Assembly: GCA_000004985.1 (NCBI GenBank)
Contig: GG738872.1
DNA length: 64,000 nucleotides
Strand: one strand, 5' to 3'
From: Naegleria gruberi
Lineage: Eukaryota
Positions 1-13,964 of this stretch are shown here, piece after piece. Both the position numbers and the translations under genes were made by a program. The notes under the pieces are model-generated. The model worked only from the letters and a program-made list of their open reading frames with translations. It was not told where the DNA came from and did not search any database. Numbering within the stretch: the first letter of the stretch is position 1; each line of letters opens with the position of its first letter.

Positions 1-472
1 ACCCAAACCCAAACCCAAACCCAAACCCAAACCCAAACCCAAACCCAAACCCAAACCCAAACCCAAACCCAAACCCAAACCCAAACCCAAACCCAAACCC
101 AAACCCAAACCCAAACCCAAACCCAAACCCAAACCCAAACCCAAACCCAAACCCAAACCCAAACCCAAACCCAAACCCAAACCCAAACCCAAACCCAAAC
201 CCAAACCCAAACCCAAACCCAAACCCAAACCCAAACCCAAACCCAAACCCAAACCCAAACCCAAACCCAAACCCAAACCCAAACCCAAACCCAAACCCAA
301 ACCCAAACCCAAACCCAAACCCAAACCCAAACCCAAACCCAAACCCAAACCCAAACCCAAACCCAAAAACCCAAACCTAAAAACCCAAACCCAAACCCAA
401 ACCTAAAAACCCAAACCTAAAAACCCAAACCTAAAAACCCAAACCTAAAAACCCAAACCTAAAAACCTAAAA
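1..472. repeat. Terminal telomere array: (CCCAAA)n on the + strand, i.e. (TTTGGG)n G-strand running 5'->3' toward the chromosome end. About 61 perfect copies (1-367), then proximal variant units CCCAAA+CCTAAAAA (368-472).
   Basis: A perfect 6-bp periodicity starts at base 1. The C-rich strand reads inward, as expected for a left chromosome end. The array degenerates toward unique sequence at ~473. Confidence 0.95.
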
Positions 473-4100: not shown

Positions 4101-5508
4101 NNNNNNNNNNNNNNNNNNNNNNNNNNNNNNNNNNNNNNNNNNNNNNNNNNNNNNNNNNNNNNNNNNNNNNNNNNNNNNNNNNNNNNNNNNNNNNNNNNNN
4201 NNNNNNNNNNNNNNNNNNNNNNNNNNNNNNNNNNNNNNNNNNNNNNNNNNNNNNNNNNNNNNNNNNNNNNNNNNNNNNNNNNNNNNNNNNNNNNNNNNNN
4301 NNNNNNNNNNNNNNNNNNNNNNNNNNNNNNNNNNNNNNNNNNNNNNNNNNNNNNNNNNNNNNNNNNNNNNNNNNNNNNNNNNNNNNNNNNNNNNNNNNNN
4401 NNNNNNNNNNNNNNNNNNNNNNNNNNNNNNNNNNNNNNNNNNNNNNNNNNNNNNNNNNNNNNNNNNNNNNNNNNNNNNNNNNNNNNNNNNNNNNNNNNNN
4501 NNNNNNNNNNNNNNNNNNNNNNNNNNNNNNNNNNNNNNNNNNNNNNNNNNNNNNNNNNNNNNNNNNNNNNNNNNNNNNNNNNNNNNNNNNNNNNNNNNNN
4601 NNNNNNNNNNNNNNNNNNNNNNNNNNNNNNNNNNNNNNNNNNNNNNNNNNNNNNNNNNNNNNNNNNNNNNNNNNNNNNNNNNNNNNNNNNNNNNNNNNNN
4701 NNNNNNNNNNNNNNNNNNNNNNNNNNNNNNNNNNNNNNNNNNNNNNNNNNNNNNNNNNNNNNNNNNNNNNNNNNNNNNNNNNNNNNNNNNNNNNNNNNNN
4801 NNNNNNNNNNNNNNNNNNNNNNNNNNNNNNNNNNNNNNNNNNNNNNNNNNNNNNNNNNNNNNNNNNNNNNNNNNNNNNNNNNNNNNNNNNNNNNNNNNNN
4901 NNNNNNNNNNNNNNNNNNNNNNNNNNNNNNNNNNNNNNNNNNNNNNNNNNNNNNNNNNNNNNNNNNNNNNNNNNNNNNNNNNNNNNNNNNNNNNNNNNNN
5001 NNNNNNNNNNNNNNNNNNNNNNNNNNNNNNNNNNNNNNNNNNNNNNNNNNNNNNNNNNNNNNNNNNNNNNNNNNNNNNNNNNNNNNNNNNNNNNNNNNNN
5101 NNNNNNNNNNNNNNNNNNNNNNNNNNNNNNNNNNNNNNNNNNNNNNNNNNNNNNNNNNNNNNNNNNNNNNNNNNNNNNNNNNNNNNNNNNNNNNNNNNNN
5201 NNNNNNNNNNNNNNNNNNNNNNNNNNNNNNNNNNNNNNNNNNNNNNNNNNNNNNNNNNNNNNNNNNNNNNNNNNNNNNNNNNNNNNNNNNNNNNNNNNNN
5301 NNNNNNNNNNNNNNNNNNNNNNNNNNNNNNNNNNNNNNNNNNNNNNNNNNNNNNNNNNNNNNNNNNNNNNNNNNNNNNNNNNNNNNNNNNNNNNNNNNNN
5401 NNNNNNNNNNNNNNNNNNNNNNNNNNNNNNNNNNNNNNNNNNNNNNNNNNNNNNNNNNNNNNNNNNNNNNNNNNNNNNNNNNNNNNNNNNNNNNNNNNNN
5501 NNNNNNNN
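1169..5508. other. Assembly gap (4340 N)
   Basis: Uninterrupted run of n characters. Confidence 1.
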
Positions 5509-5872
5509 ACTTTCTAATTTCTCTCAAAGCAACAGTACCTGGCTTATATCTATGTGGCTTTTTAGGAGTACGTGTCTTGCTAATAGTTGATGGTTGTTTT
5601 ATAGCTTTTCTTGGTGCTTTGCCTCCAGTTGATTTTCTTGTTGTTTTTCTTCTTGCTAAAATAGCAGCTTCGGAAGTATTTTTACTTTTTCTAGTATTTC
5701 CTTCGGCTAAATCGGAAGTATTGGAAGAAGAAGGAACATCTGCAGATGAAAAATTTGCAACCACATCAGAAGCGACAGTAGATGAAGAGTTTGTGGTATC
5801 AGATACCATTGAATCATCAGTAGTTTCAGTAATAGAAGAATGAGAAGTAGTATTTCCAGTGATGAGAGTCAT
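5509..5872 (-). CDS. Histone H3-family variant, 5' part only (the CDS runs into the assembly gap). It has a ~95-aa Ser/Thr/Asp-rich N-terminal extension before the H3 tail.
   Basis: The minus-strand frame reads [13 protein letters not shown]...[51 protein letters not shown] and then hits the N run. This matches canonical H3 [12 protein letters not shown] and [17 protein letters not shown]. The first ATG is at 5872; the track start at 5923 is a GTG. Confidence 0.8.
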
Positions 5873-5998
5873 TTTTTTAATTTTGAAAAGGTTATTCGGA
5901 GCATCAATAATTTGTACTCTCACAAAATAACTCTTTCAAATTTTGACCATCTAAAATAATTTCTAAAAAATATTAACCAACCGACAGAACTCTCAACA

Positions 5999-6478
5999 AT
6001 GCCAAAACGATCAGTTACTAAAATCATACCAATGTATGAAAGTATCTACGATTTACCAGTTGTCATGGTTTGTATGAAAGGAGAGAAAATCTCCGATGAA
6101 GCTTTTATTAATCATTTGTATTTTCATTCGAGTGTCTTTTATCCAACCGTTAATGATTGTACCAAAACCATCAACACAATCATGCACGAACTTGAAAATG
6201 TTATAGCAATTAATGATGATTTTATTATTGATGAAATTCCAAATCCTATGGATTTAAAAGAAAAGCTCCAACTCTCAAGAAAAGCAAATAGATTAGCTAT
6301 TTATTCATTAAAGACAATGATTATGATGGAATCAAAGATGTTTAATGCTTTGTTTCAAAAGAAACCATCTATGAATCAATTAAACAAGGCTCACAAATTC
6401 CAAAATGTAATTCATTTGGAAATTGATGAAGAAGATGTTTCCGAAAATGAAATGACCATTTGGAAAAATAAAGAATAA
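5999..6478 (+). CDS. Hypothetical protein, 159 aa, no recognisable domain
   Basis: ATG-initiated ORF, divergent from the H3-like gene across a 126-bp spacer. The composition looks protein-like. No motif was recognised. Confidence 0.45.
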   Translation: MPKRSVTKIIPMYESIYDLPVVMVCMKGEKISDEAFINHLYFHSSVFYPTVNDCTKTINTIMHELENVIAINDDFIIDEIPNPMDLKEKLQLSRKANRLAIYSLKTMIMMESKMFNALFQKKPSMNQLNKAHKFQNVIHLEIDEEDVSENEMTIWKNKE

Positions 6479-6537: not shown

Positions 6538-9303
6538 TTAATCATCAATATAGTCATCTAAAGGGTATATATAATCATTAAAGTAACGTAAAACCATACT
6601 TTCATCAACAAAGTTATCGAAAGGTTCCCATGTTGATTGTTTGTAACCATAACCTTGCCATTTTACAAGGTAATTGAAATATTTTGGTAATAAAAGATCA
6701 GAATCAATATCTATATCTTTTTCGATTAATTGATGGTCTAAAATCTCATCAACTACAAATATATCATCTGTTTGAGTATCTTGTAAATCTGAAGAATCAG
6801 CTGAAGAATCATCTGACATATCTGCCCATCTCCTTTTGGTACCTCCTTTCTTTTCCTTCTTGGATCTAAAAGAGGAACATTTCTTATATTCTTCTGGTGT
6901 CATTTTAAATTCAGAGAAGAACTTTTGCAAATCTTCAGGATTTAATGGGATGGTTACACCATCAAACCAATGATGATCTTTCAAATAACGATTCACATGT
7001 GAAACCAAATCTTCAAAAAACACATCCCTTTCTGAACTATTCCAATAACTATTTAGTAATATCTTGAATTTTGTAATAACCCGACTTTTTACCTTCCAAT
7101 AATTTTTGTTGAATTGTTTTTTATCTTCCTCTGTAACAATTTCAAGATCTGAAAATGCCATAAGAGATCTATAGATAGATCCCATGAAATTAGTAGTTTC
7201 TGTTAATGCAACCGTCTTTCCAAAAAGAAACTTCAGTTTCGGTATGTTGTCAATTAGCCAAGTCTTGCATTTGAAATCAACTCTTGTTTGTGGAAGTGAT
7301 TTTCTTTGAGAAATTATATTCTTGTTTGTTTGAGGAATATTCATAAATCCAACGCTCTCATCAATACATTCATCTCTCATAAATAGATATTTGAAAGGTA
7401 CGCAACCATTAGGATTGGATTTTCTAGATGTTATATATGAAGATGGTGACAATTCAACATTCAAAATATTATGAAAAGTAGTTTCCAATGTATCAGATGA
7501 TGAAAATCCATAATCTTGAATAGATCCTTGAACATATTGAAATATCATCTGCCGATGATGTACAGTATCTGCAAGGTACCTCTCTGGTAGTTGGTTGAAT
7601 ATTTTGAAAGCATATCTTTCATATGATTTAATTGAGCGCTTACTGACATGTCCTAGCATGAATGAAATTGCACTCTTTGTTTGCTCTTGCACAATATGGT
7701 TTCGAATAATATCAACCAACATGTTTTCTACCACAATACCAGATCTACCAGCACGTGCACAATACATGACATTTAAAATTCTCTTGGTGATATTTCTAAT
7801 ATATTCTGATATTCCATTTGAACAACATTGAGATTTAGATTGTTTTTTGAAAAATAAAAATTCTTTCACTACATCATTCTTAAATGTGAATTTACCATCT
7901 GAAATGAATTTTTCCCAATTAGAATTAAAGTTGGCAAATATCTCAGAACGAGTGTACCACAAATAATATAATAAAATGAATGATGAACAGAGAGTATGAT
8001 TCTGCTTTCCAAATATTGACACATTCCTTGATGAAGTGGTTGTACGCTTGTCTTTCTTCACTTCCATAGAAGTGTGAATAACGAACCATTTATCATCATT
8101 AAGATAATATTCAACTTTTTGAAATTTTACATCTTCAAGTCTTATCCAAATAAGAGAATCTCCTCTCATTCCAGTAGCTCGAATAACATGCATGATGGCA
8201 ACATCAGTAAGATCTTCAACTTTTGTCAAATCAGCAGCATAGGTAACTTTGTAGACCTCAGAAAACATCATTGGAGCAACTTTGTACACTTCACACCCAT
8301 ATAATCGAATCAAGCCCATTGTTGTTTGTTGAATAGCTTCCTTAAATAGAATGACTGGACTTTCACCGAATTTAGGATGTCTTTTTATGAATTTGTTCAA
8401 TCCATACACAAAGCACCCTTTCATTGTCTTATGCGAAAAACCACTAGCTCGACTGAATATCAAAAATCTAAGGTAGGTTATCTTTTCAATAGGGAATGGT
8501 TTCGGTTGAATCTTTGACCACGCTGTTTTGCCTTTGATTTGTTCTTTCCAAAACGACACATAGACAATTCCTGAATAAGCTTCAAATTGTCTAGTATTGA
8601 TATGCTTATGAAGCTTCATTACAGTGACAACCTTGGAAATATCTTCATCCAAATCATCAACAATTGTTAAATCTAAATTTGAATCAATTTCCTCATTGAA
8701 CTCTGGTCGAATAACAGCAGATTTCTTTTTTTTTGGAGTATAGCTTGCCACAAGGAGATCTTCAACATCATAATCAATTAAGCTAGCTTCCAAATTGTCA
8801 TTGATCTCTTCTAACATCTTTTCCTTCTCTTTCGGTGATGATGATTCTACATTACGAATAAGGGATTCTTTTCGAATTTCTTCATCAGTCATTTCGGGAG
8901 GGTTATCCATCTTGTTCATTCTTTCAATCTCTTGTAAAATATCTGACACAACATCCTTTTGATGCATATAAGGCTGTATCATTGTGTCTAAATCTTTAAT
9001 TGATTGAGCAACACCAATAAAATTGTTATTATGATTTAATAATGCCATTATGTGATGAAATGACTGCATAGTAAACTCAGCATCCAAACAATAAGTAACT
9101 CCGTTATAATCAACATTGATTGATTTGGAGCCAATATACTCCTTGTTGTTTAGCAAATCATTCATTTGATAAACTCGCGATGATGAGTTCTTTGATACTA
9201 AGGCGCTCTCATCCTGTTGAGTTGGTGGGAGTTCACCGGTTGGTGAATGGTTGTTGTTGGTGCAATCACTTAAATGAGAGCTTGTAGATGATGATGGAAG
9301 CAT
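6538..9303 (-). CDS. Tyrosine recombinase (Crypton-like catalytic core) fused to a C-terminal chromodomain, 921 aa
   Basis: Tyrosine-recombinase motifs read by eye: box I IRATGMRGDSLIWIRLEDV (Arg), then ARAGRSGIVV (Arg), then ISFMLGHVSKRSIKSYERY (His...Tyr nucleophile). The C-terminal 73 aa (about 6580-6759), FVVDEILDH...YFNYLVKWQGYGYKQSTWEPFDNF...VLRYF, fit the chromodomain consensus (Y.VKWkGy...tWEP). No RT or RNase H motifs are present in the sequenced part. Confidence 0.65.
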   Translation of the reverse strand: MLPSSSTSSHLSDCTNNNHSPTGELPPTQQDESALVSKNSSSRVYQMNDLLNNKEYIGSKSINVDYNGVTYCLDAEFTMQSFHHIMALLNHNNNFIGVAQSIKDLDTMIQPYMHQKDVVSDILQEIERMNKMDNPPEMTDEEIRKESLIRNVESSSPKEKEKMLEEINDNLEASLIDYDVEDLLVASYTPKKKKSAVIRPEFNEEIDSNLDLTIVDDLDEDISKVVTVMKLHKHINTRQFEAYSGIVYVSFWKEQIKGKTAWSKIQPKPFPIEKITYLRFLIFSRASGFSHKTMKGCFVYGLNKFIKRHPKFGESPVILFKEAIQQTTMGLIRLYGCEVYKVAPMMFSEVYKVTYAADLTKVEDLTDVAIMHVIRATGMRGDSLIWIRLEDVKFQKVEYYLNDDKWFVIHTSMEVKKDKRTTTSSRNVSIFGKQNHTLCSSFILLYYLWYTRSEIFANFNSNWEKFISDGKFTFKNDVVKEFLFFKKQSKSQCCSNGISEYIRNITKRILNVMYCARAGRSGIVVENMLVDIIRNHIVQEQTKSAISFMLGHVSKRSIKSYERYAFKIFNQLPERYLADTVHHRQMIFQYVQGSIQDYGFSSSDTLETTFHNILNVELSPSSYITSRKSNPNGCVPFKYLFMRDECIDESVGFMNIPQTNKNIISQRKSLPQTRVDFKCKTWLIDNIPKLKFLFGKTVALTETTNFMGSIYRSLMAFSDLEIVTEEDKKQFNKNYWKVKSRVITKFKILLNSYWNSSERDVFFEDLVSHVNRYLKDHHWFDGVTIPLNPEDLQKFFSEFKMTPEEYKKCSSFRSKKEKKGGTKRRWADMSDDSSADSSDLQDTQTDDIFVVDEILDHQLIEKDIDIDSDLLLPKYFNYLVKWQGYGYKQSTWEPFDNFVDESMVLRYFNDYIYPLDDYIDD

Positions 9304-9705: not shown

Positions 9706-9731
9706 CCCAAACCCAAACCCAAACCCAAACC
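9706..9731. repeat. Interstitial telomere-repeat tract, cccaaa x4.3, same orientation as the terminal array
   Basis: Exact string cccaaacccaaacccaaacccaaacc, followed directly by gene-relic sequence. Confidence 0.95.
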
Positions 9732-10547: not shown

Positions 10548-13500
10548 CTACCAATTACTGTTGTTTATTAAGNNNNNNNNNNNNNNNNNNNNNNNNNNNN
10601 NNNNNNNNNNNNNNNNNNNNNNNNNNNNNNNNNNNNNNNNNNNNNNNNNNNNNNNNNNNNNNNNNNNNNNNNNNNNNNNNNNNNNNNNNNNNNNNNNNNN
10701 NNNNNNNNNNNNNNNNNNNNNNNNNNNNNNNNNNNNNNNNNNNNNNNNNNNNNNNNNNNNNNNNNNNNNNNNNNNNNNNNNNNNNNNNNNNNNNNNNNNN
10801 NNNNNNNCATTATTTGTAATGACAGAGGTAATGACTAATGATATCAAAGTAATACAAGCAGGTAATAAAAGTGTTGGCATGTTCATCAATCTCAAAATCT
10901 CAGTCAATGCCTCAGCAACTCCACTTTGAGTAATTGCTGCCGCAATTCCAAAAGATGCTCCAACCAATGTCACTAATCTCCATTCCACACAATCAACTGC
11001 TCTCGTTGGTGTTATCAATCCAAATGCAACGACTGCACAGAATGTCACAAGTGTACATTGAACCATTGGAAATCCAGCAATGGCGCATCCAATCATTGCT
11101 AAAAAGAATGGGAAAATCCAATGTTCCCACCACCACAAATCTAAAATGATTTTAGTGAAGGGAATTCTGAATAGAAATGGTTTTTGTTTGAATTGGTTGT
11201 AATCTGGTGAGATTTCGTTAAATCTTGTAATGAGATAGAAATCCTTTGAATTGTCATGATTATTATGGTAGAAAACACTTTTACCCAAAATTAGAATAGT
11301 ATCACCACAATATACTGTTTTGCAATTGACGTGTGAATCCTTATCGTTGGTTTCTTTAGTATCAATTGAGGAGGAACCAACTTGTCTGATGGCTAATACT
11401 TTGACTTGATATCTTCTTTCGAATTCCAAATAAGTTTCTCCTAAACATGGATTTGAAGCTCCAATAACAACCTGGAAGAATTCAGGTTCATTTTCTTGAA
11501 TTTCAGATTGATTAGTTTTAGATTTTTCATTGGAGAGAGCTGCATCTCCATAATTCTTCTTGATATTATGATGTAATTGATTAGTGACTGGATTTTCAGC
11601 TTGTGGTGATGTTGTTGGTGAATCAATTAAATGGTCTTGAGATGTTGAAGAAGCCACGCAACTGCTCTGTGAAATTCTTCCTTCTTCCATTGGAGATTCA
11701 ACACTCAAAAAGGAAGTAGTGCTTTGACCTGTTGCCATTTTAGGTTCTTCTTTTTGGTTGACTGATTCAGAACTTTCAAAAGTTGATTTTTCAATTTCAG
11801 AACCATCATACACAAGTGAATGCAAACGTAAAATTAATTGAGGAGCTCCTTGGAAAACCAAAATATCAGAACTTTCCAATTTTAGATCTAAAGGAACTGG
11901 TGAAATTTTTTCAAGCCCAGCAACAGTTTCGTTTGTTGCTGGAATAATTGTATTCGAAGAAGTAGAGCTATTTGAAGAGTTTGTGGATTGCTCTGGACTT
12001 TCCTTAGGTTCTTCTACCTTAATTTCAATAGATTCTCCATTGGAAATTACATTTGGTTCGCTTGAAGTTGTTGGTTGACTTGAAGATTGTACACTGCTCA
12101 ATTCAACTTGATTGGTTGATTTCTTTTCTCTCAAAATTTCAATCAAATCCAAGTTGCCTATTCCCAACTCTGACATGGCTTTGACTTTGGTCTTTCCATT
12201 CAAAGTTTCAAATAATGTTTTACCTTTCGAATACTTTGGTTGAGAAGCCAAATATTCCATCTTGACAATGGTAACGAAAGTTTCCGAATGTTCTCTCACA
12301 ACTTCTCTTGCACGTTCCTTTTTACTTTTATGAGCAAAAGTAACCTTTGAAGCATTAAACTTTGAAGTCACTCCTTCATTAGGAACAATCCACAATGTAT
12401 AAGTGCAACAATAAATAATTGTAATGAAACATAAAATGGCGCCAACATAAACAAACTCATAAAAGGATAAAGGAGTGTAACCATATTGAGTATAGATACC
12501 ATTTGCAACAATACTTGCTGAAGTTCCAATATATGTCAACAATCCACCTCCATTTGTTGCGAATAAAAGTGACATGAGAAATTTGGTATGTGAAAGTTTG
12601 TGTGTCCTTGCCCATTCCATAATGATAGGAATTCCTGTGGCCACAACTGGAGTATTCGATACAAATGCACTAAAAATGGTAAAAACAAAACAAATTCTTA
12701 AAGTTGGTGGTATGAGTGAAATAAAATTGAGAAATTTGTTTTTGGAATTTTTGAATTTCAATGGGGAACCAAATAAAAGTCTGGCAAATTTCAAAACTAG
12801 GGTATTTTCACTTAATGGTTTGACGATTGGGAAGAGGAGAGCAACGATGAGAGTACCAGTGTTGGAAAAACCACTTAAGGCATCTGTAACACTGACAATA
12901 CCTGCCAGATTAAAAATGACAAGTGTCATAACCACAATAAAGTAAGGTCTCCAAAGAGAAACAACCAGACAGACTAGCATTAGGATGACCATGCATAGTA
13001 CGAACCATAATTTCCATGAATTCCATGAAAATGCAACTACAGGTGACGTGGATCCACAAATATTATTGATGGATGAGCTTGTTAACACTGTATCTATGCT
13101 CACAGATTGATTCAGCTGTTGAATGGTAGTAAAGTTGTAGTTTAGATTCTTAGAAGGAACTTGTGCTTGTAAATCGTTGAAAGCATTCACCAATTCTTGA
13201 CTAAACATTCCACTTTCAATCTTGTTTCTAATATCAGCAAGGTCGAGTTTGACTAGAAACCATTGAATTGCATAGGAATTTGTAAACAACTCTGGAATAT
13301 CCAAGTATTTGGTAGAATTCATGAATGCATTCTTACTTGTCGTTCCATTTATATGAAAAACCATCTTTTCATATGTCAAATCCATTCCACTTTTTGTTTG
13401 AATGACAGAAATTGGATATTCTTGAAGGAGAGAAGTTCTGGAAGGAAGAAAGAGTGAATTTTGATATTTTGTGGAAAGTAAGTTATTATGGATGATTCTA

Positions 13501-13964
13501 AAATAGTAAAAACTTAGTGTTTCGTTCGTTTCGTGCAAACTTTCGACATGTTCATCAAATAGAAACTTCCAAGAAATTGTTCCTTGTCCGTGTTCATAAC
13601 TCAATGAAACATAACTAATGGTAGTGCTTGCATTTATGGTAGAACTCTTATAATTCGTATCGTCATTCGAATAGTAAACACTCTCGGATATATTTTTGGT
13701 AAACTCGGTGGAAAATTGATAAATTTGACCATTTACAAATGCAGATGAAGTAGAAATACAATTATCCAATCGAATAGGATGATTTAGCAAGTTTGCAAGT
13801 GATAAAATGATGAAAATGCTTGAAATGCAAGCAAATACGAAACTGTGGAGTTTCATCTTTTTTTCTTTCGAATTGTTAGATGAGAAGGAAGAGATTCGTC
13901 CTGTTGAAATGCAAAAGGGCACAACTGTGGCCATGCTGGACTCGTTTTCTATACTATTTGGCAT
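10548..13964 (-). CDS. Ion-transporter-superfamily permease (CitMHS/DASS/YfbS-like). It has an N-terminal extracellular domain and two central TrkA-C (RCK_C)-like domains separated by a long Ser-rich linker. About 1138 aa including the gap.
   Basis: Single ORF. A signal/anchor (MKLHSFVFACISSIFIILSLANL) is followed by two multi-pass hydrophobic halves. These flank soluble segments resembling TrkA-C (...SKGKTLFETLNG...IEILREK and ...CLGETYLEFERRYQVKVLAIRQVG...CGDTILILGKS). The last ~85 codons are mostly in the N gap, so the 3' end rests on scaffolding. Confidence 0.6.
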   Translation of the reverse strand: MPNSIENESSMATVVPFCISTGRISSFSSNNSKEKKMKLHSFVFACISSIFIILSLANLLNHPIRLDNCISTSSAFVNGQIYQFSTEFTKNISESVYYSNDDTNYKSSTINASTTISYVSLSYEHGQGTISWKFLFDEHVESLHETNETLSFYYFRIIHNNLLSTKYQNSLFLPSRTSLLQEYPISVIQTKSGMDLTYEKMVFHINGTTSKNAFMNSTKYLDIPELFTNSYAIQWFLVKLDLADIRNKIESGMFSQELVNAFNDLQAQVPSKNLNYNFTTIQQLNQSVSIDTVLTSSSINNICGSTSPVVAFSWNSWKLWFVLCMVILMLVCLVVSLWRPYFIVVMTLVIFNLAGIVSVTDALSGFSNTGTLIVALLFPIVKPLSENTLVLKFARLLFGSPLKFKNSKNKFLNFISLIPPTLRICFVFTIFSAFVSNTPVVATGIPIIMEWARTHKLSHTKFLMSLLFATNGGGLLTYIGTSASIVANGIYTQYGYTPLSFYEFVYVGAILCFITIIYCCTYTLWIVPNEGVTSKFNASKVTFAHKSKKERAREVVREHSETFVTIVKMEYLASQPKYSKGKTLFETLNGKTKVKAMSELGIGNLDLIEILREKKSTNQVELSSVQSSSQPTTSSEPNVISNGESIEIKVEEPKESPEQSTNSSNSSTSSNTIIPATNETVAGLEKISPVPLDLKLESSDILVFQGAPQLILRLHSLVYDGSEIEKSTFESSESVNQKEEPKMATGQSTTSFLSVESPMEEGRISQSSCVASSTSQDHLIDSPTTSPQAENPVTNQLHHNIKKNYGDAALSNEKSKTNQSEIQENEPEFFQVVIGASNPCLGETYLEFERRYQVKVLAIRQVGSSSIDTKETNDKDSHVNCKTVYCGDTILILGKSVFYHNNHDNSKDFYLITRFNEISPDYNQFKQKPFLFRIPFTKIILDLWWWEHWIFPFFLAMIGCAIAGFPMVQCTLVTFCAVVAFGLITPTRAVDCVEWRLVTLVGASFGIAAAITQSGVAEALTEILRLMNMPTLLLPACITLISLVITSVITNNXXXXXXXXXXXXXXXXXXXXXXXXXXXXXXXXXXXXXXXXXXXXXXXXXXXXXXXXXXXXXXXXXXXXXXXXXXXXXXXLINNSNW
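10573..10807. other. Assembly gap (235 N), inside the 3' part of the permease CDS
   Basis: Run of n characters. Confidence 1.

Follow-up and report, generated by a model that had tools for sequence, protein, structure and literature searches.

Lineage-specific histone variants are common, as shown by proteomics, and H3 proteins with long N-terminal extensions exist in other protists also outside the centromeric class (CenH3 or CENP-A), such as the developmental H3 variants of ciliates. Given how common such variants are, one more H3 variant would by itself be of modest interest. CenH3 proteins are the class best known for long, unalignable N-terminal extensions, and they are distinguished from H3 by a tail that is not alignable to H3, a loop 1 that is longer by one or more residues, a lost alpha-1 glutamine that is otherwise conserved, and a divergent fold (PMC7052976). 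The centromeric histone of Naegleria gruberi, CENP-A1 (XP_002682707.1), has a tail of ~94 aa, and the name hints at the existence of paralogs. In Trypanosoma brucei, the H3 variant H3V is enriched at telomeres (Lowell and Cross, 2004, as cited in PMC7052976), and the latter source describes a fully divergent tail and the lack of the alpha-1 glutamine in H3V. The trypanosomatid type of H3V also has no insertion in loop 1.

We analyzed a window of 64,000 nucleotides that represents the left end of a 413,107-bp scaffold from N. gruberi, reaches the telomere and is AT-rich (34% GC). Four of its long ORFs match, without any difference, RefSeq proteins of N. gruberi from this one scaffold. We conclude with high confidence that the window contains a genuine coding sequence of the H3 family whose N-terminal extension is translated, and that this sequence, here called H3v, is specific to its lineage, lacks an annotation, lies in the subtelomere and forms a pair with a conserved orphan gene. 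Probably, the visible sequence is the 5' two-thirds of an intact variant gene of this kind, located in the last ~10 kb of the chromosome. The category of extended H3 variants is already known; the novelty lies in this architecture and in the conservation of a partner that is not a histone. The features of the locus are as follows.

1..463, C-rich strand on the plus strand: terminal telomere array (CCCAAA)n, 75 copies of CCCAAA
1169..5508, no strand: scaffold gap of 4340 N, covering the 3' part of the H3-variant gene and ~4 kb of other sequence
5510..5656, minus: H3 tail and part of alpha-N, aa 73-121 of H3v (PDB phmmer, BLASTP, codon usage)
5657..5872, minus: N-terminal extension, aa 1-72 of H3v (codon usage, shuffles)
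5873..5998, no strand: AT-rich intergenic region of 126 bp between divergent start codons, presumed shared bidirectional promoter
5999..6478, plus: partner gene for a 159-aa orphan protein (XP_002676322 / D2VHF3), head-to-head neighbor of H3v
6538..9303, minus: gene for a 921-aa protein (XP_002676414 / D2VHF4) with a C-terminal HP1-type chromodomain; context, outside the conserved pair
9706..9731, no strand: interstitial telomere tract (CCCAAA)4.3, perfect and in the same orientation as the terminal array

The H3-variant gene and its N-terminal extension

A minus-strand ATG at 5870-5872 in a good, A-rich context (AAAAAAATG) opens 121 codons before the frame enters the scaffold gap at 5508, and the frame is open over 138 codons when counted back to the upstream stop. 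In a phmmer search against the PDB, aa 72-121 were aligned to positions ~1-54 of canonical H3 (E 1.5e-10), and the top matches were all H3.1, H3.2 or H3.3. BLASTP against human H3 gave 58% identity over 50 aa, and the best matches in a set of 5.8 billion proteins were also canonical H3 proteins. The match to the Pfam Histone model (E 9e-4) obtained a score of 19.9 as compared to the gathering cutoff of 26.4, because only 45 residues of the domain are visible. With canonical H3 as the query in a tblastn search, the H3v site was the sole match in the 64-kb window, and no second H3 copy, H4 copy or copy of the 159-aa family was found in the window.

The initial annotation had described an H3 variant on this segment, and the minus-strand translation of 5509-5872 indeed yields the peptide strings that it quoted. 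Its end coordinate, 5923, is a mechanical in-frame GTG located 17 codons upstream of the ATG, and the extension, which it estimated at ~95 aa, is 72 aa long before the ARRK motif (77 aa to TRKSTGG) when counted from the ATG at 5872. As it also recognized, the histone fold is hidden in the gap, in which ~85 codons of the fold are expected, with or without an intron. The contig ends within the most conserved stretch of H3, which is how assemblers behave at repeats, so the hidden fold may, as a conjecture, be near-identical in DNA sequence to other H3 copies.

The H3 part of H3v (aa 73-121 vs H3 1-53) has the tail and alpha-N of the H3 family, with a blockwise distribution of the similarities. 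In a manual alignment, H3v is identical to H3 at 15 of the 18 positions in 1-18, at no more than 3 of the 17 positions in 19-35, where it is also three residues shorter, and at 16 of the 18 positions in 36-53; the two differences in the last block are R/K swaps that are also found in the bulk H3 of other species. Like canonical and replacement H3 (H3.1/H3.3), the protein retains A1-R2-x-K4, R8-K18, K36-Y41 and a canonical alpha-N helix, including the R2/K4, R8-K9-S10-T11, K14, R17-K18 and K36-K37-Y41 patches. Unlike them, it has a 72-aa acidic, Ser/Thr-rich extension before Ala1 and lacks the A25-R26-K27-S28 motif. The segment "ARRKTT-RKS" retains A1, R2, K4, T6, R8, K9 and S10, with T3R and Q5T replacements and deletion of A7. 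Of the H3.3 signature positions, 31 falls in the replaced region and 87-90 lie within the gap. Because the extension precedes the tail, H3v is without a free N-terminal Ala1. The K9/S10/K14-like core and the start of alpha-N were thus correctly identified from the outset, as was the divergence of the K27 region, whereas the replacement of the K4 region was overstated, since R2 and K4 remain and the loss is that of the free Ala1. As judged from the alignment, this mosaic conservation is the pattern of selection rather than of uniform decay.

The extension contains 30 Ser/Thr, 9 Asp/Glu and 3 Lys/Arg among its 72 residues, in agreement with its earlier description as acidic and Ser/Thr-rich, and it is probably disordered. 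With a model of codon usage derived from 14 long ORFs of this window, we obtained a score of +0.47 bits per codon for the extension in frame and of -0.66 and -0.87 in the other frames, with +0.44 bits per codon for the H3 part in frame (reference scores: 0.37 +/- 0.18 for coding windows and -0.44 +/- 0.23 for off-frame windows). Only 0.6% of the shuffles of the segment were stop-free. By these measures, the extension is coding.

It is therefore very improbable that H3v is an ordinary bulk H3 gene whose extension represents untranslated leader sequence or an intron taken for coding sequence. One tail block and the alpha-N block are canonical, as expected of such a gene, and many "extended H3" proteins in the databases are gene-model artefacts with an internal MARTKQ. 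High-coverage matches of this type were also obtained in our searches and set aside as canonical H3 proteins with mis-called upstream ORFs. However, H3v has no Met at or near ARRK, the nearest ATGs being codons 1 and 22, so the extension is not an untranslated leader unless it is spliced. The sole obvious GT..AG pair (5806..5740) encloses 67 nt and would break the frame; a frame-preserving intron within the extension is possible. The tail also departs from that of bulk H3 at three early positions (3, 5 and 7) and along the whole of 19-35, with the deficit of three residues. The initial annotation had named an untranslated leader as the finding that would speak against its reading, and both the codon usage and the lack of a Met near ARRK argue against such a leader.

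The H3v gene is missing from the N. gruberi reference annotation. The 121-aa fragment, queried with three start variants, had no exact match in a collection of 15 billion proteins, and a homology search with the 121 aa in the set of 5.8 billion proteins returned nothing closer than generic H3. JGI metagenome scans with the extension and with a degenerate DNA pattern for a segment of H3v gave no match, and no relatives of the H3v fragment, the 921-aa protein or the 159-aa family were found in scans of IMG/VR. The missing fold was not recovered from the protein collections, metagenomes, Logan/ENA contigs or IMG/VR, and a contig look-up via the neighboring 921-aa protein returned no record. The 159-aa and 921-aa ORFs correspond to the UniProt entries D2VHF3 and D2VHF4, and the numbering of these accessions suggests that the annotation of the scaffold begins with these two genes; presumably, the H3 fragment was skipped because of the gap. 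Since the gene is missing from the reference annotation, published inventories of histone and kinetochore proteins and histone proteomics of N. gruberi could not have detected H3v.

The partner gene and the conserved head-to-head pair

The 159-aa ORF at 5999-6478 is divergent from H3v, as first noted in the initial annotation, which mentioned it only in passing; it is with this ORF that the conserved linkage was found. An exhaustive HMMER scan of 1.84 billion representative proteins with the 159-aa protein identified only three relatives, with 30-40% identity, and a profile search of the 5.8 billion proteins recovered the same set and none further. The orphan family thus has four members in all in the searched collections. 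No homolog of either member of the pair was found in our searches among named proteins from Naegleria fowleri, N. lovaniensis and Willaertia. The partner has no Pfam match. Its predicted structure is a compact alpha/beta domain of moderate confidence, and the sole resemblance seen is a weak one to the SKI/SNO/DAC (Dachshund-type) winged-helix-like domains.

In a Logan contig of 1455 bp (SRR7467761, here L002), a homolog of the partner is located head-to-head with a gene that matches the Pfam Histone model and whose fold matches canonical H3 at E ~5e-35. The tail of this H3-like protein (MPSSPEPADKTNSTTTNTNKPPSKGTSKKQTGQKAPRK...) is Ser/Thr/Pro-rich with a recognizable TG.KAPRK core. The fold retains the alpha-1 glutamine (Q68, in LPFQRL), with near-canonical alpha-1 and alpha-2, while loop 1 is three residues longer than in canonical H3 and the C-terminus is diverged. 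At positions 86-90 it reads ANAIL, which is nearer the H3.3 pattern AAIG than SAVM. The tail of H3v is 29% identical to that of the L002 protein, as compared to 58% identity between H3v and canonical H3, and it is by synteny alone that the two genes are considered orthologous. We also considered a viral origin of the L002-type H3, which was rejected since the H3 proteins in IMG/VR are canonical, start with MARTKQ and are without the loop 1 insertion. Four genes on both strands share the 1455 bp of the L002 contig, which, with 2 to 70 bp between neighbors, is much more tightly packed than the N. gruberi window.

Two further contigs from two runs of one project (L004 and L005; SRR15442814/SRR15442756) carry a minus-strand ORF 87 bp upstream of the partner homolog (MSDTLPSSPASPSQILFTPPPSQN), followed by the contig end; in L004 this divergent ORF begins with MSDTLPSSPASPSQ..., and its start is Ser/Thr/Pro-rich. 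The spacers between the start codons are 126 bp in the window, ~70 bp in L002 and 87 bp in L004. The L004 and L005 contigs are 99% identical except downstream of the partner homolog (L004 ~700-1110, L005 ~660-820), where they diverge from each other and where direct and inverted copies of a ~45-nt motif (caatccacaagccaga.cggac.tagatttgatt) are clustered; this may be a small repeat element at which the assemblies break.

Since genes of the H3 family represent a very small fraction of the gene set of a protist, a second, independent adjacency of an H3 gene and the partner is improbable by chance (~1e-3 as a rough estimate). As judged from these contigs, the conserved unit is the H3 variant and the 159-aa partner gene. 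The arrangement is similar to the divergent H3-H4 and H2A-H2B pairs in that the genes are head-to-head with a short spacer (126, 70 and 87 bp) and conserved between organisms; unlike in those pairs, the partner is a non-histone protein.

The L002 gene also bears on whether H3v belongs to the CenH3 class, that is, whether it is a CENP-A paralog, which we consider unlikely from the sequence features at hand. In favor of such an assignment, H3v belongs to the H3 family and carries a long N-terminal extension, the L002 gene in the syntenic position shows the enlarged loop 1 that is one hallmark of CenH3 (PMC7052976), and the name CENP-A1 leaves room for paralogs in N. gruberi. However, CenH3 tails are unalignable to H3, whereas the tail proper and alpha-N of H3v align to canonical H3 over 50 residues and only the extension is unalignable. 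The CENP-A entries among the PDB matches listed are H3/CENP-A chimeras that were matched in their H3-derived N-terminal part. The L002 relative resembles CenH3 in loop 1 length but retains the alpha-1 glutamine and a fold that is near-canonical rather than divergent. Moreover, no N. gruberi protein shares the extension, so H3v is not CENP-A1, since a shared tail would have dominated the homology search.

A small but appreciable probability is assigned to a decaying H3 pseudogene or fragment in a recombinogenic subtelomere, of which the open frame would be a residue. H3v is unannotated and interrupted by a gap, and it lies in a block between telomere tracts, where duplicated fragments accumulate. 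The reading frame of the L002 gene is discontinuous at an A6 run near position 645, so that an 88-nt GT..AG intron or a 1-nt indel is needed to join the tail and the fold; an enumeration of introns gave several GT..AG solutions and did not discriminate between intron and indel. Because of this discontinuity, the L002 gene could itself be a pseudogene. In addition, the partner homolog on a third contig (L003, ENA ERZ12289978) is visibly truncated by a telomere-like tract. Against decay stand the open frame of 121 codons (138 to the upstream stop) and the rarity of stop-free shuffles, the coding-like codon usage in both halves of H3v, the blockwise conservation with two perfect blocks, the good start context, and the conserved pairing, the partner ORF being intact in five contigs that derive from four sources. 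We propose with moderate confidence that the H3v gene is intact and that the pair shares a bidirectional promoter.

Possible functions of the pair

Since related organisms retain the same back-to-back arrangement, H3v and the 159-aa gene probably act together. In the favored reading, the two genes would be co-expressed from one bidirectional promoter, and a near-canonical H3 fold is expected within the gap, perhaps with loop 1 enlarged in the manner of the L002 gene. The 159-aa protein may be a dedicated binding partner of H3v, such as a chaperone, a targeting factor or a reader. PHD fingers anchor the free amino group of Ala1, and ARKS-directed chromodomains read ARKS motifs; both types of reader would be affected by the extension, the missing A7 and the lost ARKS(27). 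The tail of H3v nucleosomes would thus be open to K9-, K14- and K36-type marks, with K9/S10, K14, K18 and K36 available to readers, and would be unreadable for readers that are anchored at Ala1 or directed to K27. With low confidence, we propose that the partner is a variant-specific factor for histone binding or targeting and that the variant nucleosomes have an altered reader profile.

With its K4, K9/S10, K14 and K36 patches retained, Ala1 buried and the K27 motif gone, H3v may serve as a natural experiment on the readers of free N-termini. The conserved partnership also makes the orphan protein a concrete candidate, open to testing, for a histone-binding factor that is specific to one variant and comes from outside the well-studied groups of eukaryotes, and the value of the system would be higher if the partner is a dedicated chaperone or if H3v marks the chromosome ends.

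A broader reading, which is doubtful at present, is that the two genes form a chromatin cassette that is restricted to Naegleria-like heteroloboseans and maintained at their chromosome ends, in which the partner deposits or targets a masked, K27-less H3 on telomeric or subtelomeric chromatin. If so, the pair would be a functional analog of the trypanosome H3V with its own chaperone, and the telomere-proximal position and orientation seen in both the window and L003 would be part of the mechanism. Both H3v and the T. brucei protein are lineage-specific H3 variants of discoban protists, and both have a link to chromosome ends. In T. brucei, however, the H3V protein itself is enriched at telomeres, whereas for H3v it is the position of the gene, as known from the sequence, that is subtelomeric. 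The fully divergent tail described for the trypanosomatid-type H3V in PMC7052976 is not seen in H3v; the alpha-1 glutamine, which is reported there to be lacking in H3V, and loop 1 are within the gap in H3v.

Telomere tracts and the chromodomain neighbor

The initial annotation located the gene inside a telomere-flanked block, which is borne out by the terminal array at 1-463 and the interstitial (CCCAAA)4 at 9706-9731, for which zero occurrences are expected by chance according to shuffles. The complementary unit TTTGGG is the candidate telomere repeat of N. gruberi from genome data (PMC3622300). The H3v gene lies within ~5.4 kb of the terminal array, a distance that depends on a single scaffold join over the gap, and it shares its contig with the interstitial tract, which forms the inner edge of a ~9.2-kb distal block. 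The genes located further inward, such as those for a CitMHS transporter and a NUP210-like protein, resemble ordinary chromosomal genes.

Several minor observations were made on these tracts. The inner edge of the terminal array (376-473) is degenerate and consists of ~6 copies of a 14-nt variant unit, AACCCAAACCTAAA; these units end in CCTAAAAA repeats, beyond which the sequence is unique. No convincing ORF was identified in the 705 bp between the array and the large gap (464-1168), and this segment showed no similarity to the rest of the window, nor to the sequence that adjoins the interstitial tract. The interstitial tract is located 9.7 kb inside the chromosome end and ~400 bp upstream of the 921-aa gene, and it resembles an old chromosome end that was later extended distally by ~9.2 kb.

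The 921-aa protein has a chromodomain (Pfam Chromo, E 4.7e-10) with HP1 chromodomains as the best PDB matches, and by inspection Phe, Trp and Tyr occupy the positions of the HP1 aromatic cage both in this protein (P0121) and in its homolog P0126. Its only homolog among the 5.8 billion proteins, P0126 (32% identity), is encoded on a 7.9-kb metagenomic contig (L001 1736-4909) and is convergent with a gene for a Tet/JBP-like dioxygenase. P0126 had no match to Pfam, and its contig was found to contain no H3 gene, no gene of the 159-aa family and no telomere repeats. The central region conserved between the two proteins contains segments such as SRASGF.HKT.KGCFVY, LRATGMR.DS and SSSDTLETTF.

A self-contained chromatin module, in which a histone variant is carried in a mobile unit together with the chromodomain protein, was proposed initially and is not supported by our comparisons. 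In its most explicit form, the histone would be the cargo of a Crypton- or Starship-like element that is driven by the recombinase-plus-chromodomain neighbor and inserted in telomeric repeats, a scenario that we find quite improbable. Telomere repeats of one orientation flank the ~9.2-kb block on both sides, transposable elements are known to have captured chromodomains, and the HP1-type chromodomain protein with a faint integrase-like stretch beside the pair is reminiscent of chromoviruses and Crypton/Starship elements. Yet the match to Pfam Phage_integrase (E 0.005) is below threshold, with 17.1 bits as compared to the cutoff of 27.1, and covers aa 357-407 only, while a PDB profile search with the 921-aa protein returned chromodomains only and no recombinase. 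No terminal inverted or direct repeats bound the block, and the sequences beside the terminal array and beside the interstitial tract showed no similarity to each other. The protein is single-copy among the annotated proteins, with the one distant homolog at a locus without histone or partner, and the multiple copies, defined ends and traveling cargo of a tyrosine-recombinase transposon were not found among the annotated proteins. L002 carries the pair without a recombinase-like gene and with unrelated flanking genes, and no relatives were detected in IMG/VR. Unlike the known elements, the window is thus without a supported recombinase domain, repeats, multiple copies and a conserved linkage to the histone. 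From the sequence comparisons, the 921-aa chromodomain gene is not part of the conserved pair.

The favored reading of an intact variant gene near the chromosome end is compatible with a dynamic subtelomere. In L003, the first ~13 codons of the partner homolog are replaced by ACCAAACCCAAACCCCAACCCAACCCAAACCC, a tract (100-132) that shows 94% identity to the telomere repeat of N. gruberi and has the same orientation relative to the partner gene as in the window. Distal to this tract are 99 bp of unrelated sequence. We consider L003 to be a second example of healing and distal addition at the 159-aa gene family, and the telomere-proximal setting of the pair may be conserved too. The interstitial tract and the tract in L003 fit better with chromosome breakage, healing by telomerase and later addition of distal sequence than with a mobile unit, and such events would represent ordinary subtelomere dynamics. 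The chromodomain gene and the telomere tracts would likewise reflect breakage, healing and distal addition rather than a histone-carrying mobile element, in which case the locus is a record of Naegleria chromosome ends at which telomeres were repeatedly healed and distal sequence was gained.

Further inward, a second gap of 235 N (10573-10807) breaks the 3' part of the large gene for the CitMHS-family transporter (10548-13964, minus strand).
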